Positions 1-31,540 of a stretch of 32,803 nt of DNA are shown here, piece after piece (position 1 is the stretch's first letter; each line of letters starts with the position of its first letter). Source of the DNA: a virus (taxonomy: Duplodnaviria > Heunggongvirae > Uroviricota > Caudoviricetes); IMG/VR virus record IMGVR_UViG_2617270990_000007. One strand, written 5' to 3'. Made by a program: the position numbers and the translations under genes. The notes beneath the pieces are model-generated. The model ran no database searches, had not been told where the DNA came from, and saw only the letters and a program-made list of their open reading frames with translations.

Positions 1-23
1 TGGAGAGTGTTTTATCTGTGAAC

Positions 24-914
24 TCAGGCTGCCAGATCATCGTTTCCGATGGAAGCATAATAAGCTTTTTCTGCTTCTGCCGGAGGAGTATGGCCCAGCC
101 TTCCCAGCAATCGTCGATTGTTATACCAGTCCACCCACGTTAGTGTGGCCAGTTCCACTTCTGCACGGTTTTTCCAGCTCTTACGGTGTATTACCTCCGC
201 TTTGTAAAGACCATTGATGCTCTCAGCCATCGCGTTGTCATACGAGTCGCCTGTACTCCCTGTTGATGCCAGTAATCCGGCTTCTTTTAGTCGCTCCGTA
301 TAGGCCAGTGACACATACTGAGAGCCTTTATCGCTGTGATGGATGGTGCCAGACGGACGACGGGCCCACAACGCCTGCTCCAGCGCATCCAGCACGAATG
401 TCGTTTCCATAGACGATGAGACCCGCCACCCCACGATGTATCCGGCAAACACATCAATGATAAACGCCACATAGACGAAGCCCTGCCATGTGCTGACGTA
501 AGTAAAATCAGCCACCCACAGCTGGTCAGGTCGTTCTGCCACGAACTGACGGTTTACGCGGTCGCCTGCGGCAACGGCTTTCCGGCTGATGGTCGTACGG
601 ACCTTTTTACCCCGGAGAACACCGGCAAGTCCCATAACCGCCATGAGACGTGCCACTGTACATCTGGCCACCCTGATTCCTTCCCGTAACAACTGACGCC
701 AGACTTTACGCACACCGTACACCTGATGATTTTCATCGTATACGCGCTGTATCTCTCTCTTCAGCCAGTCGTCGTGCTGCGCACGGGCACTGCGTTTATC
801 CGGATGATGTCGCTGTTGCTGACAATGGTAATACGTTGACGGGGCAATATGCAGTTCGCTGCATACCGGTCCGACCCCGTACTGCTCACGCAGCTTATCC
901 AGCAGTGGCATCAT
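24..914 (-). CDS. IS3-family transposase OrfB (DDE catalytic domain)
   Basis: 296-aa ORF; translation matches my memory of IS629/IS3-group OrfB (…WVADFTYV…HSDKGSQY…[11 protein letters not shown]…). Overlaps OrfA by 4 nt in the -1 frame. Confidence 0.9.
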
Positions 915-1237
915 TTTTTCCAGAGGCGGTCGAACTCCGCCTTCGCAAAATAAGCGGAAGCCTGGCGAAGGATATCGTTACTGCGGCGCAGTTCACGATT
1001 TTCACGTTCCAGCTCTTTCAGACGCTGACGTTCAGCGCTGGTGAGCCCACCATCACCGCCCCCGGTATCCCGCTCATGCTGGCGAACCCAGACACGCAGA
1101 GTCTCCGGCGTACAGCCAATCTTTGGGGCAATGGAACAAATTGCCGCCCACTGTGAGTCATATTCATCCTGACTTTCCAGAACCATACGAATCGCCCGCT
1201 GACGGACTTCGGGGGAAAAACGAGTATTTTTAGTCAT
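911..1237 (-). CDS. IS3-family transposase OrfA (HTH DNA-binding, leucine-zipper region)
   Basis: 108-aa [25 protein letters not shown]…; an A6 run at the OrfA/OrfB overlap is consistent with programmed -1 frameshifting. Confidence 0.9.
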
Positions 1238-1562
1238 CCTGTTTACCTCTTTCTCAGGGAGTTTAGTCTCCAGGATTTCCGGGGCGGTTCACTATGCTGT
1301 GTGCGTTGAAAATGGAAATCTTGTTAGTCATTACCGCATTATGTGTTTGCGAAAGAATGGGGCTGCGTTAATTAATTTTGTGGATGGTCGAGTGACAGAC
1401 GGATTTATCTTGCGCGAAGGTGAGTTTGTCACTTCATTACAGGCACTGAAAGAGATCGGAATAAAAGCAGGCTTTTCAGCTTTTGCAGAAGAATAAACTC
1501 ATCTACAATCTTGCGCGGGGCTGAACTCCCGCTGAGTAACACCGTGCCACCGGAGAAAACCG

Positions 1563-1842: not shown

Positions 1843-2892
1843 GTGCGGGTATTACTTCGACCTGTTCTGGTACCGGAACTCGGGCTGGTGGTCGTTAAGC
1901 CGGGCCGTGAATCCATGCCGGTATTCCACAATACCCGGGTACTGGTGGAGCCGGAACCGAAAAGCATGCGTAATCTGCCGTCCGGGGTCGTTCCTGCCGT
2001 TCGCCAGCCGCTGGTGGAAGACAAAACATTGCTGCCGTTTTTCAGTAACGCACGGGTAATTCGTGCTGCTGGTGGTGCTGGTGCATTGTCTGACTGGCTG
2101 TTGCGCCATATTAAATCCTGCCAGTGGCCACACGGCGATTATCATCACAGCGAAACCGTTATTCACCGTTATGGTACCGGCGCAATGGTGTTGTGCTGGC
2201 ACTGCGACAACCAGCTGCGTGACCAGACATCCGAATCACTCGAGCAACTTGCTCATCAAAACCTGTCAGCATGGATGATTGACGTCATCGGTCACGCAAT
2301 AAGCGGTACGCAGGAGCGTGAATTATCTCTGGCTGAATTATCCTGGTGGGCGGTCCGCAATCAGGTGGCGGACGCGCTACCGGAAGTGGTATTACGTCGC
2401 TCGCTGGGATTACCAGCGGAAAAAAACTGCTCGGTGTACCGCGAAAGCGACATCGTACCGGGAGAGCAGACCGCCACCAGCATATTGAAACAGCGCACAA
2501 AAAATCTTGCACCGTTGCCTCACGCCCACCAGCAACAAAACCCATCACAGGAAAAGACGGTGGTAAGCATCACCGTTGATCCAGAGTCTCCGGAATCTTT
2601 CATGAAGCTGCCTAAACGTCACCGTTGGGTTAAGGAGAAATACACACGCTGGGTTAAGACACAGCCGTGTGCTTGCTGCGGTATGCCAGCCGACGATCCG
2701 CATCATCTGATTGGTCACGGGCAGGGCGGAATGGGAACCAAAGCACATGATCTCTTTGTGTTGCCTTTGTGCAGAAAGCATCACGACGAGTTGCATACGG
2801 ATACCGTGGCATTTGAAGAGAAGTATGGCTCCCAACTGGAGCTGATTTTTCGATTTATCGATCGCGCGCTGGCAATTGGTGTGCTGGCCTAA
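1843..2892 (+). CDS. YdfU/DUF968-like prophage protein with C-terminal Cys/His cluster
   Basis: 349-aa ORF (GTG start); C-terminal CACCG…HH…GHGQGG…CRKHHDELH resembles the Qin-prophage YdfU family from memory. Confidence 0.55.
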
Positions 2893-2894
2893 TT

Positions 2895-3287
2895 TTGTGG
2901 AGTAAGTTGATGCGTGATATTCAGATGGTTCTTGAGCGTTGGGGGGCATGGGCGGCTAATAATCATGAAGATGTGACCTGGTCGTCCATTGCCGCCGGTT
3001 TTAAGGGATTAATTCCTTCAAAAGTAAGATCTCGTCCGCAATGCTGTGACGATGACGCGATGATCATTTGTGAATGTATGGCTCGCCTGAAAAAAAACAA
3101 CAGCGATTTACATGATTTATTGGTGGACTATTATGTCGGCGGCATGACTTTTATGGCGCTTGCACGTAAGCATGGGCGATCTGATTGTTGGGTTGGCAGG
3201 ATGCTCCAGAAAGCTGAGGGCGTAGTGGAGGGCATGCTGATGGTGTTGGATCTCCGATTGGAGATGGATGCTGATTGTTCGAAATAA
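2895..3287 (+). CDS. late-gene antiterminator Q (phage 82 / QuuD type)
   Basis: Translation …[39 protein letters not shown]…[11 protein letters not shown]…[10 protein letters not shown]… matches the ~127-aa Q antiterminator family; true start probably the internal ATG giving MRDIQMV. Confidence 0.7.
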
Positions 3288-3299
3288 TTAAAGGAAAAG

Positions 3300-3328
3300 T
3301 TGCTGTCTGATTTTCATTAGTCTAACAT
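3300..3328 (+). promoter_or_regulatory. candidate pR'-like late promoter (TTGCTG - 17 nt - TAACAT)
   Basis: -35/-10-like hexamers with 17-nt spacing, 13 bp downstream of the Q stop; position matches lambdoid pR'. Confidence 0.35.
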
Positions 3329-3377
3329 TTTAAATGTTGGAATCGCAACGTAGTTATTATCATATAACAGCTTGTTT

Positions 3378-3405
3378 CCTGATTTAGCCAGCCTCCCCAA
3401 AGGCT
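3378..3405 (+). terminator. intrinsic terminator, candidate tR' (target of Q antitermination)
   Basis: Stem CCAGCC / GGCTGG with 8-nt loop followed by a T7 run, about 50 nt downstream of the putative pR'. Confidence 0.55.
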
Positions 3406-3442
3406 GGTTTTTTTCTAATAAGTATCATTTCGGGTGGGGATT

Positions 3443-3967
3443 TTATTGTTTAACCCATAATAGTTCATTGACATTGAATCCCAACTTTTGAGCGGTACGC
3501 ACATAGTCTGCTTTTACATTATCTGGAATAGTTTGGGTCCTTGCCAGAATCCATAGGTATTCTCTGTTCGGACCACTGACAAGAGCATACTTATACTCAT
3601 CATCCAGTTTGATTACATTATAGCCACCATAGAAGGGGCCAAAAAACGAAACTTTCAACGCTGCAGTTTTAGTATCTCCAGTAAAGTATGCTTTACCTTC
3701 GCTCTCGCTCCATTTGTTTTTCGTTGGATCGTATCCACGGTTAAGTACGCGAATCCCTCCGTCGTTCCGTTTTTCATAAGTAGCGCTGACCTGTTCCAGA
3801 CCACGTTCGAACCAGTTCTCGAGGCGAGCTATTTCATACCATTTTCCGAGGTAGCGGTTGGCGTCAAAATTTGTAATCGGCTGCACACCTTTAGGTGGTG
3901 TCGGGGCCTTACATGCTATAAGAGTGAAAGAGAGTGCAATGCCAGTCAACACAGGCCATAACTTCAT
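3443..3967 (-). CDS. lipocalin-family outer-membrane lipoprotein (Blc-like)
   Basis: 174 aa; lipoprotein signal with lipobox LIAC; strong similarity by eye to E. coli Blc (…NFDANRYLGKWYEIARL…FERGLE…KVSFFGPFYGGYNVI…YLWILART…). Confidence 0.8.
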   Translation of the reverse strand: MKLWPVLTGIALSFTLIACKAPTPPKGVQPITNFDANRYLGKWYEIARLENWFERGLEQVSATYEKRNDGGIRVLNRGYDPTKNKWSESEGKAYFTGDTKTAALKVSFFGPFYGGYNVIKLDDEYKYALVSGPNREYLWILARTQTIPDNVKADYVRTAQKLGFNVNELLWVKQ

Positions 3968-4159
3968 AATAAATCCTGTACTTTTGATAGTTGAGAGTAA
4001 GTATGAAAGATAGATGAGTACGACCGATCACTTAAAGAACTTTCCTACTATATTAGGAATAGTCAATAACAGAAAAATTGTCAGTGATGAAGCCAGAAAG
4101 GCAATTTAGTCCGTGCACTACAAAGTTTATGTGTTAATGAATTAGTCAAGGGGGAGGAA

Positions 4160-5119
4160 ATGATAAAAAAACCTGTGATTGGGATCAGCGGTTGTTTGGG
4201 CGGTTCTGCTGTTCGTTTTGATGGTGGTCACAAAAGAGATGACTTTTTAATGGACAAATTAGTGGAATGGGTAACATTCAGACCAGTATGTCCGGAAATG
4301 GCTATAGGGCTGCCAGTTCCGCGTCCTGCTCTACGACTTGTGCGCTCGAAGCAAGGAAATATACGGATGTGTTTCAGCCACGACCAGAATGAGGATGTGA
4401 CAGAGAGAATGACAGAGTTTAGTCGTTCTTATATGGACAAATTAAAGGATGTATCGGGGTTTGTGGTTTGTGCTAAATCTCCCAGCTGTGGCATGGAGCG
4501 CGTGCGTGTCTATGATGAAAATGGTAATCGAGGTCGTAAAGATGGAGTGGGACTATTTACGAGCACTTTGATGGAAAAGTTTTCCTGGCTACCGGTTGAA
4601 GAGGATGGGCGATTACATGATCCAGTGCTTCGTGAGAATTTTATTGAAAGAGTTTTTGCTTTGCATGAGCTCAATCACCTTTACAAGGAGAAATTATCAA
4701 GAAGAGAGTTATTAGCTTTTCATAGTCGTTATAAGCTTCAGTTGTTGGCGCATAGCCAGGCAGGCTATAAAGATATGGGACCATTTGTGGCTGCAATACA
4801 CGAGTGGGCGGACCTTGAATCATACTTTGAGGTGTATCGTGATAATCTGATGGCGATTCTCAGAAAACCAGCATCACGTAAAAATCACACGAATGTGCTG
4901 ATGCATATACAGGGGTATTTTAGTAATTACTTAAGTACACGCCAGCGTAAAGAGTTGAGCGAGGTTATACTTAACTATCGCTTTGGCACATTGCCTCTTC
5001 TTGCGCCGTTGACTCTGCTGAAGCATTATCTGGGTGAGTATCCTAATGATTACTTGCTTACACAGAATTACTTCGATCCCTATCCGGAAGAACTGGCTCT
5101 AAGACTGATGGTGAATTAA
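4160..5119 (+). CDS. DUF523/DUF1722 fusion protein (TudS/YbgA-like)
   Basis: 319-aa ORF with SD GGGGGAGG upstream; N-terminal Cys-containing region and C-terminal YbgA-like region recognised from memory only. Confidence 0.55.
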   Translation: MIKKPVIGISGCLGGSAVRFDGGHKRDDFLMDKLVEWVTFRPVCPEMAIGLPVPRPALRLVRSKQGNIRMCFSHDQNEDVTERMTEFSRSYMDKLKDVSGFVVCAKSPSCGMERVRVYDENGNRGRKDGVGLFTSTLMEKFSWLPVEEDGRLHDPVLRENFIERVFALHELNHLYKEKLSRRELLAFHSRYKLQLLAHSQAGYKDMGPFVAAIHEWADLESYFEVYRDNLMAILRKPASRKNHTNVLMHIQGYFSNYLSTRQRKELSEVILNYRFGTLPLLAPLTLLKHYLGEYPNDYLLTQNYFDPYPEELALRLMVN

Positions 5120-5516
5120 CTGTATGCGATATCATCTGAAAGTGATGAGTTCCTGTATGCAGGATATTTACAATCGTAAAAACTACGCTATGATGCTCAT
5201 AGTGTCAGTTTTTATAAAAATCCTGTTCACGCTAAAGAAAACATTGAGATGCAATTTAATGTTGGTAAACATACCAGCCCCAAAAGATTTTATTCAATCT
5301 GTTTTTATATGAAGATATTTCAAGTGAATATAAAGAGCATATAATATTATTATTGCACGCAGCTATTATAATATAACAGATTAGTTTAATGATTTGTTTT
5401 TTGTGAGTTAAACACATGGTTTTATAGTTGTGATGCAATGAGATTTTCCTTATTGTTGAACTGGCGAATATTGATTTTCCACCTATACTTACCTGGTGTA
5501 ACCCCAATGATATCAG

Positions 5517-6239
5517 GTGGATAATATGCCATACATATGTTCTATCATTTTGGTGTTGAACTCGTTTGGTGTCCGAATTGGTAAAGAAGATATTTTGTTT
5601 AAAAAAGGAAATGCTGTCCTCATTGAATACAATTTAAAAGATCTTTTTTCGTCAAATACAGATCATCTAATGATCGTAGATATTGAGGAGAAAACAGTTA
5701 ATGATTTCTTTAAAAACTACACACTCTCACCTTTTTCTGTAAGAAGGTTTTATCCGTCATACTTGATAGTAGAATGTGAAGATTTTTCATTGTTAAGGAA
5801 CTTGGTTGCATGCTTGAATTGTGATAGCAAAACCGTGGATGTAGTTAGAAATCAAATATCACTTGCATGTCTTGCTGTCTTATCTTCAGAGAAAATAGTG
5901 CAAAGTTTTTTGTTCGGAAGTCTTAATAGCTTAGGTTGTAAAGTTAAGGCTATTATTCACTCGGATATCTCAGCGTCATGGAGACTTTGTGATATATCTT
6001 CAAGATTATATATGAGCGAGAGTTTGTTAAAAAGAAAATTAAAAGACGAAGGATTATCGTTTAGTAAATTAATTCTTGAAGAACGAATGATGATGGCGCA
6101 AAGATTATTGATCTACAGTAACCATACTGTCGGCAAGGTGGCGGGAATATGCGGGTATGACAATGCATCATATTTTGTAAGTGTTTTTAGAGGATATTTT
6201 GGTGTGCCTCCGCACCAATATTTATCAAGATTTTCTTAG
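5517..6239 (+). CDS. AraC/XylS-family transcriptional regulator
   Basis: 240 aa, very AT-rich; C-terminal AraC-type HTH signature (…ASYFVSVFRGYFGVPPHQY…). Confidence 0.75.
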   Translation: MDNMPYICSIILVLNSFGVRIGKEDILFKKGNAVLIEYNLKDLFSSNTDHLMIVDIEEKTVNDFFKNYTLSPFSVRRFYPSYLIVECEDFSLLRNLVACLNCDSKTVDVVRNQISLACLAVLSSEKIVQSFLFGSLNSLGCKVKAIIHSDISASWRLCDISSRLYMSESLLKRKLKDEGLSFSKLILEERMMMAQRLLIYSNHTVGKVAGICGYDNASYFVSVFRGYFGVPPHQYLSRFS

Positions 6240-6429
6240 AAGATATGATGTGATGGCATTTTATAAAGTTATTTTTTGAAGTGTAAGATTATACGATATT
6301 TTTAGCTACGCCAGAATAATTGCTGGCGTTTTTCTTTTTGAATAGATGTTCGGGCCTTACGCTAATGTAACTTCTTTCCTTCTTCGAACCAAACCGTGTA
6401 CACCATCCGTTATCTGCGGAGGTGAGGCT

Positions 6430-6645
6430 ATGAAATCCATGGATAAGTTAACAACGGGCATCGCCTACAGCACCTCTGCAGGCAGTGCTGGCTACTGGTT
6501 TTTACAGTTGCTCGATAAAGTCACGCCCTCACAGTGGGCGGCAATAGGTGTATTGGGTAGTCTGGTATTTGGCATGCTGACGTATCTGACAAACCTTTAT
6601 TTCAAGATTAAAGAAGACAGGCGTAAGGTTGCGAGAAGAGAGTAA
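6430..6645 (+). CDS. lambdoid holin (EssD/S-like)
   Basis: 71 aa from ATG at 6430 ([31 protein letters not shown]…), SD GGAGGTGAGG upstream; closely resembles DLP12 EssD. Confidence 0.8.
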
Positions 6646-6649
6646 TCCA

Positions 6650-7201
6650 ATGACTCAAGACTATGAACTGGTTGTGAAAGGAGTTCGCAATTTTGAGAAT
6701 AAAGTGGCGGTAACTGTAGCCTTACGGGACAAAAAACACTTTGACGGTGAAATTTTTGACCTGGACATCTCGCTGGACCGTGTTGAAGGTGCCGCGCTGG
6801 AGTTTTATGAGGCAGCAGCCAGAAGGAGCATCAGACAGGTCTTCCTGGATGTTGCTGCCGGGTTATGTGAAGGGGATGAGCAGTCGCCGGAAAAGCGCCC
6901 CATAATTTTAGAGGCGCAGAATGTGTGGATAACCTACAAAGGAAAGCTACCGGGAAGAATTACTGGTTCTCTGAAGACGCCACCGACGGCATTGCGGTCA
7001 GAAAAAGATGATATTGAATCGCCCATTGAAAAACTGGAGGGCAGCGTCGCTGATCTGAATAAAAAATTGTCGGTGCTGATTCCTTCTGAAGATGAAAAAA
7101 AACGCCGCGATGAGCAGTTTGCGGCGTTTTACGATTATTGCATTGAAGTTACTCGCAGGAATTTTGTGAAGATTTTTGAGGAGGGTAAATCTCTTCAGTA
7201 A
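6650..7201 (+). CDS. hypothetical protein (183 aa) within the lysis cassette
   Basis: ORF between holin and endolysin; start taken at the ATG giving MTQDYELVVKG; no recognised motif. Confidence 0.45.
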   Translation: MTQDYELVVKGVRNFENKVAVTVALRDKKHFDGEIFDLDISLDRVEGAALEFYEAAARRSIRQVFLDVAAGLCEGDEQSPEKRPIILEAQNVWITYKGKLPGRITGSLKTPPTALRSEKDDIESPIEKLEGSVADLNKKLSVLIPSEDEKKRRDEQFAAFYDYCIEVTRRNFVKIFEEGKSLQ

Positions 7202-7409
7202 GCTTATTGGCGGACGCTGCAATTAATTCAGGAAGGTCCGCAAGGTCATCTGTCAGTGGATATGATGAAAAATCGGCGGCAGTTCTGTTAAGAAGCGCTT
7301 TAACTAATTCCTTTTCCTTCTCCGGCAACAAGTTGATTAGAGCTACGACTGCTTGCCTGAGTGCGATTAAATCAGCAAAAGTTTGTTTAGGTAGATTTGT
7401 GTAATCCAT
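7149..7409 (-). CDS. hypothetical small protein (86 aa), antisense to the lysis cassette
   Basis: ORF with AGAGG SD-like sequence about 6 nt upstream of its ATG; overlaps the 3' end of the preceding gene. Confidence 0.3.
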   Translation of the reverse strand: MDYTNLPKQTFADLIALRQAVVALINLLPEKEKELVKALLNRTAADFSSYPLTDDLADLPELIAASANKLTEEIYPPQKSSQNSCE

Positions 7410-7522
7410 AGTCGCCTCTGTGTTTATCAGATTGACATCCTCCTCCCGCCAGTGCCCATCACTGGTGAGGTAAGATTTAACATATCCGGGGATTTGAAGC
7501 CGATAAATCCTGATAAATATCC

Positions 7523-8550
<1,028 letters not shown>

Positions 8551-9325: not shown

Positions 9326-9369
9326 AAATGAAGGCTCCATCGGGGGCGTTGGTAGCCCTTTGATATACG

Positions 9370-9458
9370 GGCTTTCAGCGGTGTAATGCGGGTTTGAGCA
9401 CCACATAAAGCCACTGAAAGCCGCTATAAATCACCCGAGTGTGGACACTGTGTGGACG
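9370..9458. other. candidate attL of the P2-like prophage (core region plus Int arm-type direct repeats)
   Basis: Two direct repeats GTGTGGAC (9439..9446, 9450..9457) at the int 3' end resemble the P2 Int arm-site consensus as I recall it; 11-bp inverted repeat GGCTTTCAGCG / CACTGAAAGCC (9370..9380, 9412..9422) just outside int. Confidence 0.4.
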
Positions 9459-10444
9459 TTTTCGGGTTCAATGCCGCCCTTTAACGGATTGAGTGTTACG
9501 GCATCTTGTAAATACTCTGGCGCGAAGTGCGCGTAGACCATTGTCTGCTCTATGCGCGCGTGACCGAGTATCCTTTGTAGCGTGATAATGCTTCCTCCGT
9601 TAATCATGAAATGCGTAGCAAAACTGTGCCGTAGAGCATGGGTTGCCTGTCCTGCTGGCAGGTCGGGCTTTACCTCTTTCAGTACCTGCCGGAACAACGT
9701 GTAATCGGCATTCGGGAACAGGAAGCCGCGCTTCACGCTGGTGAGTATTTCACATACTTCTGCCGATACTGGCACCGTTCGGGGTTTGTTCGTTTTGGTT
9801 TTAACAAACGTCACCCGATTATGGATGATGTGCTCGGCTTTCAGTTTTGCCGCTTCACCCCACCTAGCGCCCGTGCTTAGGCAAAGAACCGCTATTTTTT
9901 TATTGTCACCATCGAGCCGCGAGAAAAGGGCGGTAATTTCCTCGTTGGTTAAATAGCCCGTTTCGGGCTTCTCCTCTTTGAGTCGTTTACGTCCTCTTAT
10001 CGGGTGTTCGCCATGGTATAGCTCGGCCTCAATCAGAGCGGTAAACATTCCGCTGATGCATGTCAGATCCCGATTGATGGTAGATGGCTTAACGCCTTCA
10101 CCTCGCCGAGCTGCAACATACTGGCTAATTACCGTCTTTGTAATCTGAAACGCGCACGGATCACCGGTTATCGCCGCGAATTTCTCGACCTTTCCCCGAT
10201 TGTACTTTCCCCATTCCTCGTGCTTTGCCTTGAGTTCCCACCAGATTTGAATCAATTCGGAAAGTTGCCTTTTATCGGTCGGCTTCGCTAACCAATCCTT
10301 GTTGTGGTGGTTGTATTGCGTGTGCTTCTCAAAGGCCACTGCCTCACTTTTCTTGTCAAACTTCCTGCGGATGCGTTTTCCGTTGCGTCCGCTAGGTCTA
10401 ATGTCCACTTCATAACGACCATCATCGAGTTTCTTAATTGTCAT
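9431..10444 (-). CDS. int: P2-like tyrosine integrase
   Basis: 337 aa; C-terminal catalytic region with R…HALRHSFATH…LGH…Y motif typical of tyrosine recombinases; adjacent to C and cox in P2 order. Confidence 0.9.
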   Translation of the reverse strand: MTIKKLDDGRYEVDIRPSGRNGKRIRRKFDKKSEAVAFEKHTQYNHHNKDWLAKPTDKRQLSELIQIWWELKAKHEEWGKYNRGKVEKFAAITGDPCAFQITKTVISQYVAARRGEGVKPSTINRDLTCISGMFTALIEAELYHGEHPIRGRKRLKEEKPETGYLTNEEITALFSRLDGDNKKIAVLCLSTGARWGEAAKLKAEHIIHNRVTFVKTKTNKPRTVPVSAEVCEILTSVKRGFLFPNADYTLFRQVLKEVKPDLPAGQATHALRHSFATHFMINGGSIITLQRILGHARIEQTMVYAHFAPEYLQDAVTLNPLKGGIEPENVHTVSTLG

Positions 10445-11845: not shown

Positions 11846-12013
11846 ATGACAATTCAAACAAATGAACGCGCGCACCTGCTTGGATTGTTACGTATCAAAT
11901 TAACCTTGCTGAAAAAAGAAAAACTGTCCACCAATGAAATTTATCGCAGCCTGGAAAACTGGATCGACAACAGAGAACAGGCCGCAGAAATCAAGGAGCA
12001 AAAAAGTGATTAA
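11846..12013 (+). CDS. small ORF (55 aa) overlapping the methyltransferase start
   Basis: ATG with G-rich SD 8 nt upstream; stop TAA overlaps the GTG start region of the methyltransferase; below the 60-aa cutoff of the ORF track. Confidence 0.3.
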   Translation: MTIQTNERAHLLGLLRIKLTLLKKEKLSTNEIYRSLENWIDNREQAAEIKEQKSD

Positions 12014-12998
12014 CTCCCCTCTGATCTGGGCTGGCGGCAAGTCTCGCGCGATGCCTCATGTACTGGATGCTCTGCCGCAGGGTGAATGCCTCGTTGAGCC
12101 TTTTGTGGGTAGTGGTAGCGTCTTTCTGAATACAGACTATAAAACCTATATTCTGTGTGATAGCAATGCAGCCCTAATTAATTTCTTCTCTATGGTTAAG
12201 CGCAACACAGAAGCGCTTTTAACTTATGCATCCGCCTTGTTTTTGACTGGTAATAATGAAGATGCATATTACATAAATCGTGATGACTTCAATATTTTTA
12301 ATCGCGAGTACGCAGGGCATAGAGAGCAATATACAAATGATGAATTAGTTAAATATGCAGCGCTATTTCTTTATTTGAATCGTCACTGCTACAACGGTGT
12401 TTACCGTGTTAATTTAAAGAATGAATTCAACGTTCCTTTTGGTTTTCGTAAGAAGCCAATTTTCCCTGTGGCTGAGATTCAGCATTTTGCAAAAAGGGCT
12501 TGGGACAAAGGGGCAATGTTCCTGCATGGTGATTTCAGAGAAACAATTCCTCTATCTATCGGGCATTCAGGCTGCGTGGTTTATTGCGATCCTCCATACC
12601 TGCCAGCCAGCGAGACTGCAAATTTTACTGCATACGGTAAGCCCTTTACTGATGAAGACCATCGCGCCCTGGTTGCGATGCTTTCACGCCTCTACAACCA
12701 GGCAAAAATACCCTCTGTTATTTCCGGCAGTGACACCCCGGAAACGCGCCAAATTTACTACCCGTTCACCCTTAACTCATTCGAAGTCCGGCGTTCTGTG
12801 GGAGCAAAAACACGCAATCTCGCGGGTGAGGTGATTGGTTCGCTGCTCGTCTGTGACGAGTGCGGGCAAGTAGGGCGTGGTTATTGCGCTACCTGTTGCC
12901 CTGCCGTTGCTGGCGATGGCTATGAATCTGGAAGCGATACCTTTTGCTGTCGCAACTGCGAGATCTGCGATTCATACACAGCAGCAGAGGACTTCTGA
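12006..12998 (+). CDS. dam: Dam-like N6-adenine DNA methyltransferase with Cys-rich C-terminal extension
   Basis: SPLIWAGGK (AdoMet-binding motif I) and DPPY (catalytic motif IV); GTG start with AAGGAG SD 6 nt upstream; C-terminal ~55 aa carry ten Cys (CDECG…CATCC…CCRNCEIC). Confidence 0.85.
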   Translation: MINSPLIWAGGKSRAMPHVLDALPQGECLVEPFVGSGSVFLNTDYKTYILCDSNAALINFFSMVKRNTEALLTYASALFLTGNNEDAYYINRDDFNIFNREYAGHREQYTNDELVKYAALFLYLNRHCYNGVYRVNLKNEFNVPFGFRKKPIFPVAEIQHFAKRAWDKGAMFLHGDFRETIPLSIGHSGCVVYCDPPYLPASETANFTAYGKPFTDEDHRALVAMLSRLYNQAKIPSVISGSDTPETRQIYYPFTLNSFEVRRSVGAKTRNLAGEVIGSLLVCDECGQVGRGYCATCCPAVAGDGYESGSDTFCCRNCEICDSYTAAEDF

Positions 12999-13462
12999 TG
13001 ATTACTCCGTCCATTAACGATCACGTGAGCTATCTGCAAGGCGCGATAGCGGCGTTAGAAAAGGCAAAAGAGGCTGCATTAATTCACGCTGGTTATGCAG
13101 GTCTTTTGGCTGGCCCTGATGTTGAAAAGACGCTTCGTAAGTCTTTCGGGGCGGTTCTTGATCCCCTGATTAAGTCTCACAGTAGTGAGCTTGTTTTTCT
13201 TGGCTTTGATCCTGCCGCTGAAGCCGAGCCTGAAAGTCATACGGTTTGCGCCGTTGTTACGCGCGTTTTTTCACGCCGCTGCATTAGCAAAGGTTGCTGG
13301 CGCGTTGATTTCGAGGCGCACGATTTGTGGACTGATGAAGTTGTCCGGCATTCCCTCAACTATCCAACAGTCAAGGCCGCGCGGAAATGTAAACCAGGTA
13401 AACCGATGACATGGAAGACGACGCCTCCCCCGTTCGATTTTGATGATGGAGCGCCATTCTGA
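12998..13462 (+). CDS. hypothetical protein (154 aa)
   Basis: ATG overlaps the methyltransferase stop (TGATG); no motif recognised. Confidence 0.5.
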   Translation: MITPSINDHVSYLQGAIAALEKAKEAALIHAGYAGLLAGPDVEKTLRKSFGAVLDPLIKSHSSELVFLGFDPAAEAEPESHTVCAVVTRVFSRRCISKGCWRVDFEAHDLWTDEVVRHSLNYPTVKAARKCKPGKPMTWKTTPPPFDFDDGAPF

Positions 13463-13635
13463 TGAATACCGTTGAGGTTGTAGTGACAAAGGTGCTGGAT
13501 GTTCTCCCGCGCCGTAATTATTGGATCACTCGCGTTGAAGTTCTGGGCGAGGGTGGTTACAGCAATACAGACCTGATCACCTACTCTGAACGTGACGCAA
13601 GAGCGATACAGCCAGGCGACACGGTTTTCATCTGA
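13462..13635 (+). CDS. small ORF (57 aa)
   Basis: ATG overlaps the preceding stop; ends 9 nt before gene A; below the ORF-track cutoff. Confidence 0.35.
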   Translation: MNTVEVVVTKVLDVLPRRNYWITRVEVLGEGGYSNTDLITYSERDARAIQPGDTVFI

Positions 13636-13644
13636 GGCGGCTTA

Positions 13645-16224
13645 ATGTCTTCATTTCGCCGCTCTCATAGCATGACCAACATGCCGGGAGGCTCTATCGA
13701 GCCAGCCCGGTATGCTTACGCCTGGAATGAGCCAAAAGCCGCCATCTTCGTTGATAAGGCTCCCGCTGTTGATCTATATGAATTGGGTCAAGAGCAGGAG
13801 TTTTTCGCCTGGGTTGAAAATCCCCTCAAGCCGTTGCCTATCTTCATTCGCCGCCGCATTGCCTCTTACATAAATACCGTTCACGAGGATAAAGGGCGCC
13901 ATATCGCAAAACTGAAGTTGCGCGACATCGTTAAGCGCGAGCTTCCACACGTCAGAAACGTCACGAAACAATACGCTGTGCCAGAAGACAATGAGTGGAT
14001 CATTTTCTCTGAACTAAACCCACTGTTTCACTCGTTTGAAAATCTGCGTGAACTTGTCCGCCGCTTTAATAATCTGGCGGATTGCACGGATGAAGATATT
14101 GATTTGCTGGCTCAGGACATAGCCATTTATGCCAATGCTGTTTTGGCTGAAGTGAGCGAGGGTGCAAGTGTGTTCAACGATACTGAATACACCAAACGCA
14201 TGCTGCGTGAAGGCTCCAGGCTGATTGCGTATTTCAGGTTAGTGCCGCCCTGGGCGAAGAAGCGCCGGATGGCGCTTGATGAAGCGACAGCAGCAATACA
14301 AAAAACCCTTCATGATCGCTTTTGGTCACGCCTCCTGCGCAAGTACGCCCGCCGCTGGCGCGAGCATTTGCACATTGCCTATGGTGACGTGCGCCGCGAT
14401 GTTTCACCGTATTGCAGCAAACACCACGTTACGCAGTGGGATTCACGCCGTAAGCGTAGCCGCGCAATTATGAGCCGCCTTGAACTTGAAGATCAGGTAA
14501 CTGGTGAGCGCATTTCGCTGATAGAGCAGATTGATAAGAGCATTTCTAATCCTGAAAAGCGCCGTGTTGAGTTGATGACGCGCATTGGTGGATTTGAGAA
14601 GGTGGCAACGGAAAGCGGGTTTGCCGGCAGTTTCTTCACCCTGACCGCGCCGTCTAAATATCATGCCTTTACAGCGTTCGGGCATCGTAACCGCAAATGG
14701 AACGGAGCCAGCCCCCGCAAGACACAAAACTACCTTAATCGCGTCTGGCAACTGATCCGCGCGGAGCTTGCGCGCCGTGAGATTTCTGTTTTTGGCCTTC
14801 GTGTTGCAGAGTCTCACCATGATGGTACTCCGCATTGGCATGGCCTTCTGTTCACAGCCCCAGAGCATACCGGCGAATTGCTGGAAGTGATGGAAGACTA
14901 CGCCACGCGTGAAGATGCTGATGAACTCACCGGCAAGAATGGCAAACAGCCCCGCTTTGAACTTAAGCCGATAGATCCGGCTTTGGGGAGCGCTACTGGA
15001 TATGTCGTTAAGTACATATCTAAAAACATCGACGGTTATGCACTGGATGGTGAAAGCGACGACGAAAGCGGACGCCCACTGAAGGAGACAGCAAAACACG
15101 CTACTGCCTGGGCTTCATGCTGGGGCATTCGTCAGTTTCAGTTTCTGGGTGGCGCGCCGGTGTCCGTCTGGCGTGAGTTACGCCGCCTGAAGAATCAGGA
15201 AATGGCAGATCGAATCAGTCCGGTTTTCGGTGAGTTACACCGCGCCGCCCATGCCGGGAACTGGCAGGACTACATCACCTTGCAGGGTGGTCCGTTCGTG
15301 ACACGGAATAGGCTTGTGTTGCGCGCCTGGTATCAATATCGGGATGAGCCGAGCAGTTACGGCGAGTTTCAGAGGGTTATTAAAGGGGTGGTCATGCCAG
15401 CATCGACCGTTCCTCCGGTTGAAACCCGCCTCCATTCTTATCGCATTGTCAAAAAGAAGCCAAAAGCAGACGACGCCGCCGATCGAGGTTTTGACCTTAA
15501 GGGCGCGCCCGCGCCCTCTTGGACTCGTGTCAATAACTGTACTGAGTACAAAAAACATACAAATCAAGGGGCGGTAAATCCACCGCCTGAAGATCCAGAA
15601 CAATATGAAATTGGTCAAATGAGCCGAGAGCAGAAAAAACGGCTTAATGAGAGCATCAGAAATTACAAACCAAAACAGCAAAAATCACCTGCTGATGTGT
15701 TTGAGTCGCTTGCCAATGCTATTGCCGCTTCAGATTGCGATAGCGCAGATCAGGAGCGCGCTGAAAATTACATGAAAGTGGCGGCGGCTATCCGCGATGA
15801 ATCAGCAACCCGGCGGAGCAGTGTTGTGGAGGCCACACCAATGACTGCTCACCTTCGCTATCAGCTTTCCTCTTGGGGAATTAAGTCCAAGCCTGATATT
15901 GATGCCCTTCGTCGCGGGGCTTTGCTTTCTTTTGATGATCGACATGTTTATCTGAAGGATGGCTATCTGGTAGAAAAGACCAAAGCAATTTACTGTAGGG
16001 CTAGAGATTGTAATGCGGAGTTAAATCAGGATGATATAACCTATGGCGATGAAAAGCTCTGCTTGGCTTGTACTATGAAGCTGAAGGGGGTAGAAGTAGT
16101 CGAACAGCGCCGCGATGAAGTTAAGCAGAGAGTTAAAGCGGAAAGGAAGCGGGAGAATGATGTACTCCTTGAAAGATTAAGGGTTGCGCTCATTAATGGG
16201 GGGAAGCGTGGGCAAGTACTTTGA
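13645..16224 (+). CDS. A: P2-family replication initiation protein A (rolling-circle endonuclease)
   Basis: 859 aa; central block …FFTLTAPSKYH…HHDGTPHWHGLLF…GYVVKYISKNIDG… matches the P2 gpA family (conserved Tyr/His motifs). Confidence 0.9.
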   Translation: MSSFRRSHSMTNMPGGSIEPARYAYAWNEPKAAIFVDKAPAVDLYELGQEQEFFAWVENPLKPLPIFIRRRIASYINTVHEDKGRHIAKLKLRDIVKRELPHVRNVTKQYAVPEDNEWIIFSELNPLFHSFENLRELVRRFNNLADCTDEDIDLLAQDIAIYANAVLAEVSEGASVFNDTEYTKRMLREGSRLIAYFRLVPPWAKKRRMALDEATAAIQKTLHDRFWSRLLRKYARRWREHLHIAYGDVRRDVSPYCSKHHVTQWDSRRKRSRAIMSRLELEDQVTGERISLIEQIDKSISNPEKRRVELMTRIGGFEKVATESGFAGSFFTLTAPSKYHAFTAFGHRNRKWNGASPRKTQNYLNRVWQLIRAELARREISVFGLRVAESHHDGTPHWHGLLFTAPEHTGELLEVMEDYATREDADELTGKNGKQPRFELKPIDPALGSATGYVVKYISKNIDGYALDGESDDESGRPLKETAKHATAWASCWGIRQFQFLGGAPVSVWRELRRLKNQEMADRISPVFGELHRAAHAGNWQDYITLQGGPFVTRNRLVLRAWYQYRDEPSSYGEFQRVIKGVVMPASTVPPVETRLHSYRIVKKKPKADDAADRGFDLKGAPAPSWTRVNNCTEYKKHTNQGAVNPPPEDPEQYEIGQMSREQKKRLNESIRNYKPKQQKSPADVFESLANAIAASDCDSADQERAENYMKVAAAIRDESATRRSSVVEATPMTAHLRYQLSSWGIKSKPDIDALRRGALLSFDDRHVYLKDGYLVEKTKAIYCRARDCNAELNQDDITYGDEKLCLACTMKLKGVEVVEQRRDEVKQRVKAERKRENDVLLERLRVALINGGKRGQVL

Positions 16225-16495
16225 TGATTATGAACGGGAAGCTGACTATCAAAATTGGCTCTATTATCGAGAATCTTCGCATGAGGAACGTGAGTCAAAA
16301 AGTCATTATATCAGCCAGGATGAAGCTGAGGTGGAAAGTAGGCCTAAGTTGGTTGTGACGAAAATTGAATGGCCCGCAGTAGACGTGTTTCGTGATTTCC
16401 CTGAACACCAAGCCCTGATTACCGCTGCGGAAAAAAAATACTTTGAGTCAAAATCATGCGTTCGCGACACTGGGGATGACCAAGATGATGATTGA
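16196..16495 (+). CDS. small acidic protein (about 99 aa), P2 orf91 position
   Basis: ATG-started ORF overlapping the last ~29 nt of A; highly acidic, ends DDQDDD. Confidence 0.35.
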   Translation: MGGSVGKYFDDYEREADYQNWLYYRESSHEERESKSHYISQDEAEVESRPKLVVTKIEWPAVDVFRDFPEHQALITAAEKKYFESKSCVRDTGDDQDDD

Positions 16496-16516
16496 TAATG
16501 TGTTGTAAGGTATAAG

Positions 16517-16560
16517 TTTCAGAATAACAAGGTGTTGTAAAAAATCTTGTTATTCTGAAA
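16517..16560. repeat. perfect 15-bp inverted repeat between convergent genes (possible bidirectional terminator)
   Basis: TTTCAGAATAACAAG - 14 nt - CTTGTTATTCTGAAA, 22 nt after the plus-strand ORF stop and 5 nt after the minus-strand ORF stop; no clean U-tract on either side. Confidence 0.4.
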
Positions 16561-16564
16561 GTGG

Positions 16565-17716
16565 TTAGATAGGGGAATTCATGCTATCGGGTGCTGTTAC
16601 TACCAAATGAACTTTCGTTAATCTTTCAACCGCAAGTTTAGGCAGTACACTATCAAAAATAGCTAAATAATTTTCCAAAAGGGAATTAATATAATCAAGT
16701 TTGCCATGCTCAATCTCATACCAAGTGTCAGGGAGATACCTGACTATAATGCTTAATGTATATAATACGACTAAGTGTAATACAAAGGGATCTTGAGTTC
16801 CCCAAAATGGGACAATTACACTCGTTCCACAATAACCAGATTTGTGTGTCGTGACATAATCCCACCATAGCTCATCTTCAGGGTGATGGACTTCTCCTAC
16901 AAAATATGGTTGGTCATATTTTGTGAGGTTTTCTTCTGACTCAATTTCAATGTTTTTTATTCCAATGTTGTAAGAATTAAGCTCTTCTGCTGTTACATCG
17001 CTACCTTTGGGATAAATTGCGGCATATGTAAAACCTGAGAACTCTGGTTTAGGACGCGATAGGCCACCGAGTGACTGATTCCTTGATCTTAAGAGCATGT
17101 TTCTACTTGCTTGTCCAATTTGGAATGAAAGTGGATCTTCACCGAAAGTTTCTTGTAAAAGCGGTCTTAATTCTGGAATTCGTTTTAATAAATCAGTTAA
17201 AGAATAGGTGCGTGATGGGTCTAAATCTTCATCTTTTTTTGGACGTCTTTCTGTTGCATACTGTTTGATATCAATTCCTATATGCTTTGCATATGAATAA
17301 AAATGTCCACTTTTAAGACAGCCTATTTTTATATTGTCTGGGAATGTTTCATTTTCAACAGATTGTGTGAATAGCCCATGACCTGAAACCGTATGCTTTT
17401 GAACATTTTTTAAATCGTCGTTAGGATCCCCTGATGATATTTGTTCAGCTAAGCTTATCTGTAATAATGCATAATATCTGGATAAAATTTTTGAATTGAG
17501 TCCGCCATTTTCAGTCTCCCAATATCCGATTGCACTTCGTATTGCGGAGGACATTCCAATGGATTTTTTAATCAATACATCCTCTTGCAATGACGGATGA
17601 TTATTTTCTATTATTTTCTTACAGAGCTGCGCACTCATTAATCGTTTTAATCGTAACCAGATTGCACCGCTAACATCTGCTGCAACGAAACGTTCTATTG
17701 TTTTTTCTGATGACAT
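16565..17716 (-). CDS. hypothetical protein (383 aa), hotspot cargo gene 2
   Basis: Long AT-rich ORF with AAGGAA SD 5-6 nt upstream of ATG; no domain recognised by eye. Confidence 0.6.
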   Translation of the reverse strand: MSSEKTIERFVAADVSGAIWLRLKRLMSAQLCKKIIENNHPSLQEDVLIKKSIGMSSAIRSAIGYWETENGGLNSKILSRYYALLQISLAEQISSGDPNDDLKNVQKHTVSGHGLFTQSVENETFPDNIKIGCLKSGHFYSYAKHIGIDIKQYATERRPKKDEDLDPSRTYSLTDLLKRIPELRPLLQETFGEDPLSFQIGQASRNMLLRSRNQSLGGLSRPKPEFSGFTYAAIYPKGSDVTAEELNSYNIGIKNIEIESEENLTKYDQPYFVGEVHHPEDELWWDYVTTHKSGYCGTSVIVPFWGTQDPFVLHLVVLYTLSIIVRYLPDTWYEIEHGKLDYINSLLENYLAIFDSVLPKLAVERLTKVHLVVTAPDSMNSPI

Positions 17717-17995
17717 CGCTGTTCCTTAGTTGACGTATTACAACTTTTCAAAGTTAACCATACTCTACAAAATTAGTGGTACTAAAGGGAGCATTTTTTG
17801 ATTGCCAGCAACTTCAAATCACATAGCGGGGAGCTACAATGTAGTGTGTCGCGGCTTGGTCCTTGCTAAGAATCCATGTATAACTGAGCGCCACGAAATT
17901 GTAATGCCCTTCAAAGACCGCCGGGATTGGCGGCTTTTTAGAGTTTACTTCTAGTTTTATTGCTTCAAAATAGAGATAAAAGATAATATGGCTTA

Positions 17996-19345
17996 TCAGT
18001 TAATATCAAAGCCTTCGATCTTCTCATACATCATTTCAAACCATTTGACTCGTTGTCCAGGTATTACAGCCATGAATGCGTACTCAGTGAGCATATCAGA
18101 GGAACGTAGTTCTTCATCGGTGGCTAAGTGGTATTTTAACAATATTGCAATATAATAAATCTCAGAAACATCGACAAGGTTTACAGGAATTGATAATCGT
18201 TTAAATATCTCATCTTCTGTCAGTTTTTTGTTTAATATTTCCATGAGTAAGGATTGGTTGAATATTTTCAAGAAAGCAACTAGTGCGATGGCAACATGAA
18301 ATATTTCATGTCGGTAGGAATTTACTTCGCTGGGGTCGTTCATTATTGCGAATGTTGAATAGCAACGCTCAGCCTCTCGCAGTGAACAGTTATTCATTTC
18401 TAGAAGATACGCGAGGGTTTTTACGAGAGAACCATTCCGAATCAGTATGTCATTCCCTTGATCTAACGACAGGAGATATTGTGTTAACGTTGAACGTTCA
18501 TAGCCTGCTCGGCAGCCTACTGAGAGCATACTTTTTTTAGGAAGAGTAAACCAATAATGAATAAATTTATTTAAATATAATCTTGTATTTATGCTCCCAT
18601 ATCTACACTCTATACTTTTTTCAAACTGCTCACGGTTAACTACTAGTAAGAAAACAAAACCTTCCACTGAAAATATATGTTTTATTTTCTCTAGCAAGTC
18701 AAGGGAAAAATCAGGTCGCGACCTGTCTAGCTCATCAATTATAAATATTATTTTTTTCCCACACTCAGTGTGAATCTTGGTCAGCAATGCTCTAAATTGC
18801 TCAATTGTTGCTAACTCACTCTCGCTCGTTTTTATTTTTTCTTCAATGTACTCTTCAATAGGTGATGTGAGAGAGTCACTGATGGCATCACTTGCTTTCT
18901 CCAGTGCGTTACCTGAGACTAATCCACTTGTGAAAGTGCTTACGGCAAATTTTGCACCATTAAGTGCGAATGACGCGCCTAGTTTTTTACCAATGGATAA
19001 TAACTCTTTCCCGAGGTTTTTAAGCTTTCCATCTTCTTTTTTTATGAGTGAATAAATTTTTGATGTTAAGGCTACAAATGGGTCTGATTGATAGTCATTT
19101 TCAAAAGCGTCAAAGTAAATAACGTCAAAGTTGTCAGCATGGTTTTTATTTATTTCTGATGACATCATTTTTACAAATGAGGTTTTTCCGTTACCCCATT
19201 CATCATTGAGCGCAAGTACAAGACTTTTATCTGGGGCATTTGTTGCTACCCGCATGATGATGTCATGAAGTTTTTTACGTCCAAATATGTCATCTGCTGT
19301 ACTAAAACCATCTGAGAACGCTTTAACAGGAGCGGTCAATCGCAT
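17996..19345 (-). CDS. KAP-family P-loop NTPase (449 aa), hotspot cargo gene 1
   Basis: Walker A with the KAP-typical Trp (NDEWGNGKTSF), following F-D-A-F…D-P-F segment, Walker B IIFIIDELDRSRPDF; GAGGAA SD upstream of ATG; AT-rich. Confidence 0.7.
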   Translation of the reverse strand: MRLTAPVKAFSDGFSTADDIFGRKKLHDIIMRVATNAPDKSLVLALNDEWGNGKTSFVKMMSSEINKNHADNFDVIYFDAFENDYQSDPFVALTSKIYSLIKKEDGKLKNLGKELLSIGKKLGASFALNGAKFAVSTFTSGLVSGNALEKASDAISDSLTSPIEEYIEEKIKTSESELATIEQFRALLTKIHTECGKKIIFIIDELDRSRPDFSLDLLEKIKHIFSVEGFVFLLVVNREQFEKSIECRYGSINTRLYLNKFIHYWFTLPKKSMLSVGCRAGYERSTLTQYLLSLDQGNDILIRNGSLVKTLAYLLEMNNCSLREAERCYSTFAIMNDPSEVNSYRHEIFHVAIALVAFLKIFNQSLLMEILNKKLTEDEIFKRLSIPVNLVDVSEIYYIAILLKYHLATDEELRSSDMLTEYAFMAVIPGQRVKWFEMMYEKIEGFDIN

Positions 19346-30557: not shown

Positions 30558-31164
30558 CAGTCTGTTGCCACCTTCAGCCAGTGATTTTATGCGCAGTGCC
30601 GAGGCCGCAACCTGGCGCGTGAGTGATTTGCCCGTAGACCTGAAAACGCTGTGGAACCCTGATGAATGCCCGGTTGCTTTACTGCCTTATCTGGCCTGGG
30701 CGTTATCGGTTGATCGCTGGGATAAAGGCTGGTCAGAACAGACAAAGCGACAGGTGATTAAATCCGCCTGGCTGGTACACCGGCAAAAGGGAACTATTGC
30801 GGCGCTGCGCCGTGTCGTTGAGCCGTTCGGCTTCCTGATAAAGGTCGTTGAATGGTGGCAGAACGGAGGCGAGCGGGGAACATTTCAACTTGAAATTGGT
30901 GTTTCTGACTCAGGGATTACAGAAGAAACCTATCTCGAGCTTGAGCGCCTGATCGCTGATGCAAAACCATGCTCACGCCACCTGACCGGCCTTGCAATCA
31001 GTATGCAGGCGAAGGGAGAGGTATACGCCCACGCCGGGTGTTATGGCGGTGACGTGATGACTATTTACCCCTATATGCCTGAAGCCGTAGAAGTCAGTGG
31101 CGGGTATTTTCCCGGGGGCGCAATTCATATTATTGATACGTTAGAGGTAACAAATGGCGGCTAA
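30550..31164 (+). CDS. I: tail protein I
   Basis: 204 aa; P2 order. Confidence 0.8.
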   Translation: MNNSLLPPSASDFMRSAEAATWRVSDLPVDLKTLWNPDECPVALLPYLAWALSVDRWDKGWSEQTKRQVIKSAWLVHRQKGTIAALRRVVEPFGFLIKVVEWWQNGGERGTFQLEIGVSDSGITEETYLELERLIADAKPCSRHLTGLAISMQAKGEVYAHAGCYGGDVMTIYPYMPEAVEVSGGYFPGGAIHIIDTLEVTNGG

Positions 31165-31498: not shown

Positions 31499-31540
31499 TG
31501 AACCGCCCCGGGTTTCCTGGAGAGTGTTTTATCTGTGAAC

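Follow-up and report, generated by a model that had tools for sequence, protein, structure and literature searches.

An unannotated small-protein family that travels with a zinc-ribbon-like variant of the P2-family replicase A

Introduction

What, if anything, is encoded by the short acidic open reading frame (ORF) that overlaps the 3' end of replication gene A in the P2-like prophage of IMG/VR record IMGVR_UViG_2617270990_000007, and what might its product do there? The whole stretch of DNA analyzed here, referred to as the window, is 32,803 nucleotides (nt) long, and within it the small ORF lies between gene A and a pair of convergently oriented genes. An earlier note, made from the letters of the window, described the ORF and speculated that it might be the equivalent of P2 orf91 or might encode an acidic modulator resembling a DNA mimic. 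The advance reported here is modest but concrete: a family of small proteins, hitherto unannotated, that accompanies a zinc-ribbon variant of replicase A in the P2 family, the two moving together as a cassette.

Results

The small ORF is a conserved protein-coding gene

The coordinates given in the earlier note are correct: an ATG at 16196 opens a 99-codon frame that closes with a TGA stop at 16493-16495 and overlaps, in a different frame, the last 29 nt of gene A, which ends at 16224. The description of the 99-amino acid (aa) product as acidic is likewise borne out, with 25 D/E versus 13 K/R residues, a net charge of -12, an isoelectric point (pI) of 4.55, and a DDQDDD C-terminus. The same frame could also be entered at a TTG at 16184, giving 103 aa, or at a GTG at 16208, which is four codons 3' of the ATG and gives a 95-aa form that overlaps gene A by 17 nt. 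It is the codon at 16208 that is kept among homologues, as GTG in the window and as ATG or GTG elsewhere, and it is there that the window equivalent of MGKY, the N-terminus of most homologues, begins. All homologous loci have GGGGG, GGAGG or GAGG 5-6 nt upstream of this start. At locus L006, an upstream in-frame stop leaves the codon equivalent to 16208 as the sole start, and the 95-aa form is annotated in several NCBI records. Thus, the conserved start, the Shine-Dalgarno (SD) element in every locus, the L006 stop and the NCBI records make a 95-aa protein with a 17-nt overlap of gene A the most probable product, while ATG 16196 is possibly an additional start in the window phage. Residue numbers below refer to the 95-aa form.

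The window contains 72 ORFs of at least 90 aa, so length alone is no evidence of a gene and the case rests on conservation. We found about 35 homologues with 34-99% identity in Escherichia, Salmonella, Citrobacter, Kluyvera, Pantoea and Serratia prophages. A search of 5.8 billion proteins returned 24 closer homologues from Escherichia, Salmonella, Citrobacter and Kluyvera (51-99% identity, E=1e-59 to 1e-16), all of them 82-106 aa long and all named 'hypothetical protein'. A HMMER profile scan of 1.84 billion cluster representatives gave 12 clusters at E<=0.001 and brought in distant members from Serratia that are 62-99 aa long, mostly 62-76 aa. No larger domain-containing protein was found among these representatives, apart from the 508-aa P0031, whose seven repeats match the second conserved motif; this repetitive sequence is probably a spurious ORF and was disregarded. 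A match in a Cloacimonadota locus (L003, 30% identity over 58 aa) is probably due to chance.

Codon-level comparison of five loci revealed nonsynonymous-to-synonymous rate ratios (dN/dS) of 0.10-0.29 where dS is unsaturated. The proportion of nonsynonymous differences (pN) was 0.27-0.36 and that of synonymous differences (pS) 0.59-0.88, with pN far below pS in every pair. In 13 of 13 loci the small-ORF frame is the sole frame open from end to end, the other five all being interrupted. These data bear directly on the possibility that the ORF is a chance open frame, or that what is conserved here is a DNA or RNA element rather than a protein. The many ORFs of similar length in alternative frames of the window would be compatible with a chance frame. 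Against it stand the pairwise deficit of nonsynonymous differences, the breakage of every other frame in homologues, the conserved start codon and SD element, and the persistence of the amino-acid motifs at 34-46% identity, where synonymous sites are saturated; nor was any Rfam family matched within 15500-17200. This explanation is strongly disfavored, and we regard it as highly improbable. Conservation in other P2-like phages was the check that the earlier note had proposed for the ORF, and at no fewer than 13 independent P2-like prophage loci the frame is indeed kept, with purifying selection acting on it. From this conserved frame and this selection we conclude that the small ORF is a genuine conserved protein-coding gene.

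The gene closes the early operon at the edge of a defense hotspot

At the loci with an intact gene A (L002, L004-L011, L016-L019, L029, L033-L036 and L039-L043), the small gene directly follows a gpA-family gene of 789-908 aa in every case. Its start falls either within A, giving an overlap of 1-17 nt (14 nt in L007-L010 and L017), or 1-14 nt past the A stop codon. The exceptions have a broken A: in the Kluyvera remnant L037/L038 the gene follows an A fragment of 127-150 aa, and in the short contig L020 A is apparently split by a frameshift. A start that overlaps or abuts the upstream stop, an SD element inside the upstream gene, and conservation of both are the features of a translationally coupled cistron, and the small ORF displays all of them. 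Since its start is so placed and its SD element lies inside A, the small ORF is positioned for translational coupling with the A replicase. We also considered a +1 frameshift on the G-run that would fuse A to the ORF, and rejected it: L006 has GGAGG in place of the G-run, and there is no overlap between the genes in L016, L018 and L019.

In contrast to the fixed place of the small gene, the cargo downstream of it varies by locus. A YaaC-like gene with a KAP-family nucleoside triphosphatase (NTPase) gene is found in the window, and elsewhere the KAP gene alone, an Exo_endo_phos gene pair, a DUF2806 gene, or HicAB; in L017 nothing separates the small ORF from the portal gene Q. This constancy beside variable cargo argues that the small ORF belongs to the conserved early operon. 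Its G+C content of 45% is in agreement, as gene A has 51% and the two cargo genes only 36-37% (whole window, 49%). By gene order, then, the small ORF is the last cistron of the early operon in one sub-lineage of Enterobacterales P2-like prophages, and a backbone gene at the left edge of the gpA-gpQ defense hotspot as defined previously (PMC9122126, PMC13586616), not part of its cargo.

The small ORF is truncated in L028, where a remnant, LGKYFEREDDYQN, runs into a stop codon, and in an E. coli deletion derivative of the window's own prophage (L012-L015). Because these prophages carry only a truncated copy, we conclude that the gene is dispensable for prophage maintenance.

Several of these loci are of interest in themselves. 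The E. coli derivative has undergone a deletion of about 3.4 kb that extends from inside the dam methylase gene through A to about codon 60 of the small ORF. The resulting 101-aa chimera (P0025), which joins the Dam N-terminus to the last 39 small-ORF codons, is annotated 'DNA adenine methylase'. These prophages retain Int, C, Cox and the YaaC/KAP cargo, and are thus replication-dead prophages with defense cargo. In the heavily decayed Kluyvera cryocrescens chromosomal remnant (L037/L038), which adjoins an IS3-family transposase, all that survives is part of the integrase, the C-terminal 127-150 aa of A, the small ORF in intact form and a KAP NTPase. In two Serratia prophages (L011 and L019) a co-directional HicA/HicB toxin-antitoxin pair comes next after the small ORF, and, unlike at loci with convergent cargo, no strong hairpin lies between them.

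The small ORF is co-inherited with a C-terminal extension of replicase A

The window's gene A is recognized by phrog_91, 'nicking at origin of replication' (E=3.6e-225), and its product shares 31% identity with P2 A. Its C-terminal extension carries a motif of the form YCx4C...LCxxCT, which is common to 10 of 10 A proteins aligned from ORF-bearing loci; Y27, C28, C33, C50 and C53 are invariant in the alignment of A C-termini. In nine of the ten, a basic coiled-coil-like segment of about 45 aa follows. The A tail has a net charge of +2 to +6 in nine of ten loci, while the small ORF is mostly acidic. The A proteins of P2, 186 and PSP3 lack the extension, and these phages lack the small ORF as well. 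The extension is nonetheless present in A proteins that are only 28-31% identical to that of the window, which makes them as distant from it as P2 A.

When IMG/VR was searched with the A extension, ten contigs were recovered, nine with an intact small ORF and one (L028) with the truncated remnant. A search of IMG/VR with the A core gave 80 further loci, two of which have both extension and ORF and 78 neither. Among the 78 are A cores 62-79% identical to that of the window, as close as or closer than its ORF-bearing relatives. Their C-terminus is formed by another module, ...GELI...WRKTL..HK...RW, after which the cargo comes directly, with no coupled small gene. For example, in the IMG/VR loci L042 and L044-L049 the 62-79% identity holds over the first ~720-765 aa of A, up to the alternative module, and neither zinc ribbon nor small ORF is seen. 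Given that such close relatives of A carry another C-terminal module, the 3' end of gene A looks like a cassette that has been swapped by recombination, separately from the adjacent cargo hotspot.

The combination also appears to be rare. Searches by tblastn with the small ORF, two distant homologues and the A C-terminus gave no match in INPHARED (50,697 phage records, 160 of which match gene A), and megablast and blastn searches of 5,426 complete E. coli genomes found neither the small ORF nor the extension. A scan of JGI metagenomes yielded no locus with the A extension as query and one locus with the small-ORF profile, and a protein-database search with the extension returned two fragments only. 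Thus, the small ORF is co-inherited with the zinc-ribbon and basic coiled-coil A extension as a unit, and on these searches the two form a rare cassette at the 3' end of gene A.

Two helical motifs joined by a variable linker

The small protein has two conserved blocks, both rich in aromatic and charged residues. The family consensus of the N-terminal block is GKY.DD.E.E.DY..WL.YRESS.E.R, in which E11, Y14, Y20 and R21 are invariant family-wide and G2, K3, Y4, D6, D13, W17, E22, S23, S24, E26 and R28 nearly so. That of the C-terminal block is VFR.YPEH...I..AE..Y, with F61 and H67 invariant and Y64, P65, E66, A74 and E75 nearly invariant. The linker between them (aa 36-64) is predicted to be disordered, varies in sequence, and differs in length by about 25 residues among homologues; the tail after the C-terminal motif is also variable across the family. 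Two AlphaFold2 runs, with 25 and 30 sequences, concordantly predicted helices at 7-22, 25-35 and 65-87, with per-residue confidence (pLDDT) of 78-87 over aa 1-20 and 92-93 in the last helix. Both gave a disordered middle and no compact fold, at a predicted template modeling score (pTM) of 0.30-0.32, for which it should be borne in mind that the alignment is shallow and that the protein could still fold on binding. Helices on a disordered linker, with no globular fold predicted, would suit a small protein that folds on a partner.

No family of known function claims the protein. The small ORF had no match in scans of Pfam, PHROGs, NCBIfam and PADLOC, and none of 30 family members matched Pfam at E<=10. 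Against PHROGs the 30 members gave only weak matches, below threshold, to families of unknown function, mostly at E>=0.015 (phrog_34147, phrog_2080), with one member matching phrog_21788 at E=1.1e-4. Foldseek comparison of the two AlphaFold2 models with the Protein Data Bank (PDB) and BFVD found nothing significant, and a PDB sequence search gave one chance match (E=0.29). Two short-motif candidates were rejected: a beta-clamp-binding motif, QNWLY, because its Q is not conserved, and mimicry of the single-stranded DNA-binding protein (SSB) tail by DDQDDD, because the tail is not conserved and has no hydrophobic end.

The acidity of the window copy is what had suggested a DNA mimic, that is, a rigid acidic protein that imitates B-form DNA and titrates a DNA-binding enzyme, as do Ocr, ArdA and Ugi. 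The charge, pI and DDQDDD tail of that copy would fit such a protein, and most close homologues are acidic too. Acidity is not a property of the family, however: across 41 sequences (10 of them locus-derived, some of which duplicate database entries) the net charge ranges from 0 to -14 and the pI from 4.4 to 6.7, with the L017 and L019 members near neutral. Basic residues account for 13-18% of the sequence, the acidic tail is lineage-specific and elsewhere variable or absent, and conservation falls mainly on aromatic residues plus R, H and S, not on a surface array of carboxylates. Together with the lack of a compact predicted fold and of any match in the structure and PDB sequence searches, these observations run counter to the earlier suggestion of a DNA-mimic-like modulator, which we consider very unlikely.

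The small ORF is not a homologue of orf91 or tum

A second identity put forward earlier was that of an orf91 equivalent, and the tum genes of 186 and PSP3 invite the same question. By position the proposal stands, since the small ORF directly follows A, is the last cistron, and overlaps the end of A as P2 orf91 does. By homology it does not. P2 Orf91 (NP_046796) is a DUF3850 protein, and no DUF3850 (PF12961) match was found in the window ORF or in any of the 30 family members (Pfam, E<=10). BLASTP against Orf91 gave E=6.7, and the hhalign probability was 0.2-0.3% against Orf91, TumA and Tum (0.2% for Orf91). Genes of the DUF3850 family in fact coexist with the small ORF, upstream of A in the same operon, in L011 and L019. 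As to Tum, the antirepressor of 186 and PSP3, a promoter scan found no promoter-like site on the + strand between 15700 and 16700, and the window phage has a P2-type C/Cox switch. True homology to orf91 or tum is effectively refuted at the level of sequence, and we give it almost no weight.

Is the product a partner of replicase A or a host-directed effector?

Our preferred reading, to which we assign a probability of roughly 45%, is that the small protein assists or regulates the extended A replicase as its partner. In this mechanism, translational coupling would set a fixed stoichiometry of small protein to A, and the two helices of the small protein would dock on the C-terminal module of A. 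Docking would then modulate initiator activity, oligomerization, or the recruitment of host replication factors. Three lines of evidence favor a partner. First, the start overlaps or abuts A, with an SD element, in every locus with an intact A. Second, the small ORF accompanies one C-terminal variant of A (10 of 10 aligned proteins, with 78 of the 80 loci found through the A core having neither feature). Third, the predicted helices and disorder fit a protein that folds on a partner, and the A tail is basic where the ORF product is mostly acidic.

A more ambitious and more tentative version of the same idea is that the small protein and the zinc-ribbon/coiled-coil tail of A constitute a previously unrecognized two-part module of the P2-family rolling-circle initiator. 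The coupled subunit would dock on A and control initiation, cis-action or host-factor recruitment. Such a module would stand in for the C-terminal modules found in P2, 186 and PSP3, and would be exchanged as a cassette at the 3' end of A.

Several observations weigh against a partnership with A, and some of them suit a different function. Co-inheritance could be explained by physical linkage, as the DNA is contiguous or overlapping and leaves little room for recombination. Charge complementarity between the two proteins is weak and uncorrelated across loci, and both L028 and the E. coli deletion derivative have only a truncated ORF. The alternative is that the product is a host-directed or anti-defense effector, small and made early, whose role would be to bind and inhibit some conserved protein of the host, for example a replication factor, a repair factor or an immune sensor, and that it is linked to A by adjacency only. 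Between distant lineages the ORF is at least as conserved as A (39-46% identity versus 28-31% for A overall), which also fits a conserved host target. The A protein of L018 has the zinc ribbon and lacks the coiled-coil tail, yet the small ORF is present, so the coiled coil is not an obligatory docking site. In the decayed Kluyvera remnant L037, which lost most of A, the ORF remains intact beside the KAP NTPase gene; hence the ORF is not strictly dependent on an intact A. Small phage inhibitors typically have this architecture of two short helical motifs and a disordered linker, expression would be expected from the early operon, and the absence of a match to known families is common for anti-defense genes.

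An effector of this kind would, on the other hand, have to account for the strict co-occurrence of the ORF with one structural variant of A, it being found in 0 of the 78 other A cores, closer relatives included. Its position is constant and its inheritance apparently vertical, whereas counter-defense genes are usually patchy and mobile. In addition, a large survey, which covered known types only, detected very few known anti-defense genes in P2-like phages (PMC13586616). We consider the effector hypothesis the main rival, less probable than a partner of A, which we continue to favor.

An inverted repeat separates the small ORF from convergent cargo

The perfect 15-bp inverted repeat that the earlier note placed between the small ORF and the convergent hotspot genes is present, with a 14-nt loop. 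The window holds five close inverted repeats of at least 13 nt, and this one alone has a long perfect core. Its folding energy is -17.1 to -21.9 kcal/mol, with z = -5.1 and -8.1 versus dinucleotide shuffles. Being rare in the window and folding far beyond the shuffles, the repeat cannot be put down to chance. Its stem is rich in A+T, with G/C at 5 of 15 positions, and has no T-run on either strand. It thus differs from an intrinsic terminator, with its G+C-rich stem and U-tract, and a terminator consensus scan did not report it. At L033, L016, L037 and L039, canonical bidirectional terminators with a G+C-rich stem flanked by A- and T-runs lie at the convergent junction. The shared junction position argues for the same role, and the repeat is probably a bidirectional transcription stop or a hairpin that forms or protects RNA 3' ends. 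Its A+T-rich composition suggests that it arrived with the low-G+C cargo.

The hotspot cargo itself is a two-gene convergent unit on the minus strand (16565-19345), made up of the YaaC-like gene and the gene for a 449-aa KAP-family P-loop NTPase. The latter is matched by the PADLOC candidate defense system PDC-S20 (E=1e-74), with weaker matches to PifA and QatA. In related prophages the KAP NTPase gene is found alone at the same place.

Features of the window

The coordinates of the principal features are listed in Table 1.

Table 1. Principal features of the window, ordered by main subject and then by position
Feature	Position	Strand	Remarks
Replication gene A	13645..16224	+	Rolling-circle initiator, P2 gpA family; 859 aa; Pfam PF05840 (Phage_GPA), E=6.7e-95
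A C-terminal extension	15913..16221	+	aa 757-859; predicted zinc-ribbon-like motif, then basic coiled-coil-like tail
Zinc-ribbon-like motif	15991-16074	+	aa 783-810; YCx4C...LCxxCT; putative, by sequence pattern
Shine-Dalgarno-like element	16198..16206	+	GGGGGGAAG; G-rich; inside gene A 3' end, 2-10 nt upstream of conserved start
Small ORF, conserved form	16208..16495	+	95 aa from GTG 16208; last cistron of early/replication operon
N-terminal motif	16211..16297	+	GKYFDDYEREADYQNWLYYRESSHEERES; aa 2-30; predicted helix-turn-helix-like paired helices, aa 7-22 and 25-35
C-terminal motif	16379..16450	+	VDVFRDFPEHQALITAAEKKYFES; aa 58-81; helix aa 65-87, the most confidently predicted
Acidic tail	16466..16492	+	DTGDDQDDD; lineage-specific, not family-wide; differs or missing in homologues
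Inverted repeat	16517-16531 / 16546-16560		TTTCAGAATAACAAG / CTTGTTATTCTGAAA; perfect 15 bp, 14-nt loop
YaaC-like gene	16565-17716	minus	PF14175; 383 aa; 3' end 5 nt beyond the repeat
DUF968/HNH protein	1843-2892		
Lipocalin Blc-like gene	3443-3967	minus	
2-thiouracil desulfurase/DUF1722 gene	4160-5119		
AraC-family regulator	5517-6239		
Phage lysozyme	7523-8056		

Upstream of A, a 172-aa ORF (12944-13462, +), for which Pfam and NCBIfam gave no match, is flanked on one side by the dam methylase gene (11934-12998, 354 aa) and on the other by a 57-aa gene (13462-13635) that precedes A. In L033, L035 and L039 a 327-330-aa Dam gene is followed directly by a 57-60-aa gene, and so the 172-aa ORF seems to mark an additional insertion, about 500 bp long, in the window's early operon. 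To the left of the P2-like integrase, the DNA from 1843 to 8550 is not P2-like and holds host genes and remnants of another prophage. An imperfect 28-nt inverted repeat (9364-9428; 75% complementary, 9-nt spacer) adjoins the end of the integrase gene (9431-10444, minus strand) and may be part of the attachment site or an int terminator.

The two ends of the window (1-1286 and 31518-32803) are 100% identical direct repeats of 1286 bases. They hold an IS3-family insertion sequence (IS) with orfA (HTH_Tnp_1, 108 aa) and orfB (rve integrase core, 296 aa). The right-hand copy begins about 21 nt earlier, near 31497, with the terminal inverted repeat GTGAACCGCCCCGG, and apparently interrupts the late genes of the phage immediately past the ORF at 31154-31501. 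The stretch is either flanked by two copies of the IS, or a repeated IS is the point at which the contig was cut or assembled.

Discussion

Regulation of gpA-type initiators is little understood beyond their action in cis. The modularity of the P2-family replicase A at its C-terminus, where the zinc ribbon and coiled coil travel with a coupled small gene, offers a testable handle on that regulation. What had been a speculative ORF is now a defined conserved protein family with clear motifs and a corrected start codon, whose members previously were only 'hypothetical protein' and which went undetected in the deposited phage records searched. There is also a consequence for surveys of P2 defense hotspots, which treat whatever lies from gpA to gpQ as belonging to the hotspot (PMC9122126, PMC13586616). 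In the small-ORF lineage the first gene after gpA is backbone and should drop out of the list of candidate defense systems.

Comparison with known systems

In its genomic setting, the small ORF resembles P2 Orf91. Both are the last cistron of the early operon with a start that overlaps the A stop, by 17-29 nt here and by 4 nt in P2, where Orf91 stands just before the tin/old hotspot. Nevertheless, the two are unrelated in sequence and family. Orf91 is a DUF3850/ASCH-like protein with no function assigned in the P2 record, and P2 A is without the zinc-ribbon extension that accompanies the small ORF. Likewise, 186 Tum and PSP3 TumA-TumB are small proteins encoded directly downstream of A. The genes for 186 Tum and PSP3 TumA, however, follow an intergenic gap and have their own LexA-controlled promoter, their products being SOS-controlled antirepressors, whereas the small ORF start overlaps A.

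With the DNA mimics T7 Ocr, ArdA and PBS2 Ugi, the window copy shares small size, an acidic pI and an early position. The likeness ends there, as the small-protein family has neither a conserved acidity, nor a predicted compact fold, nor a structural or sequence match.

For the proposed partnership with A, a conceptual parallel is provided by satellite P4, in which Cnr is a small negative regulator that acts through the replication initiator alpha. P4 alpha is a primase-helicase, not a gpA-type nickase, and an interaction between the small protein and A is something that we infer only. With that difference in kind, the parallel would be one of arrangement and of mode of action, in that Cnr, about 100 aa long, shares an operon with the initiator and modulates it by binding to it directly.

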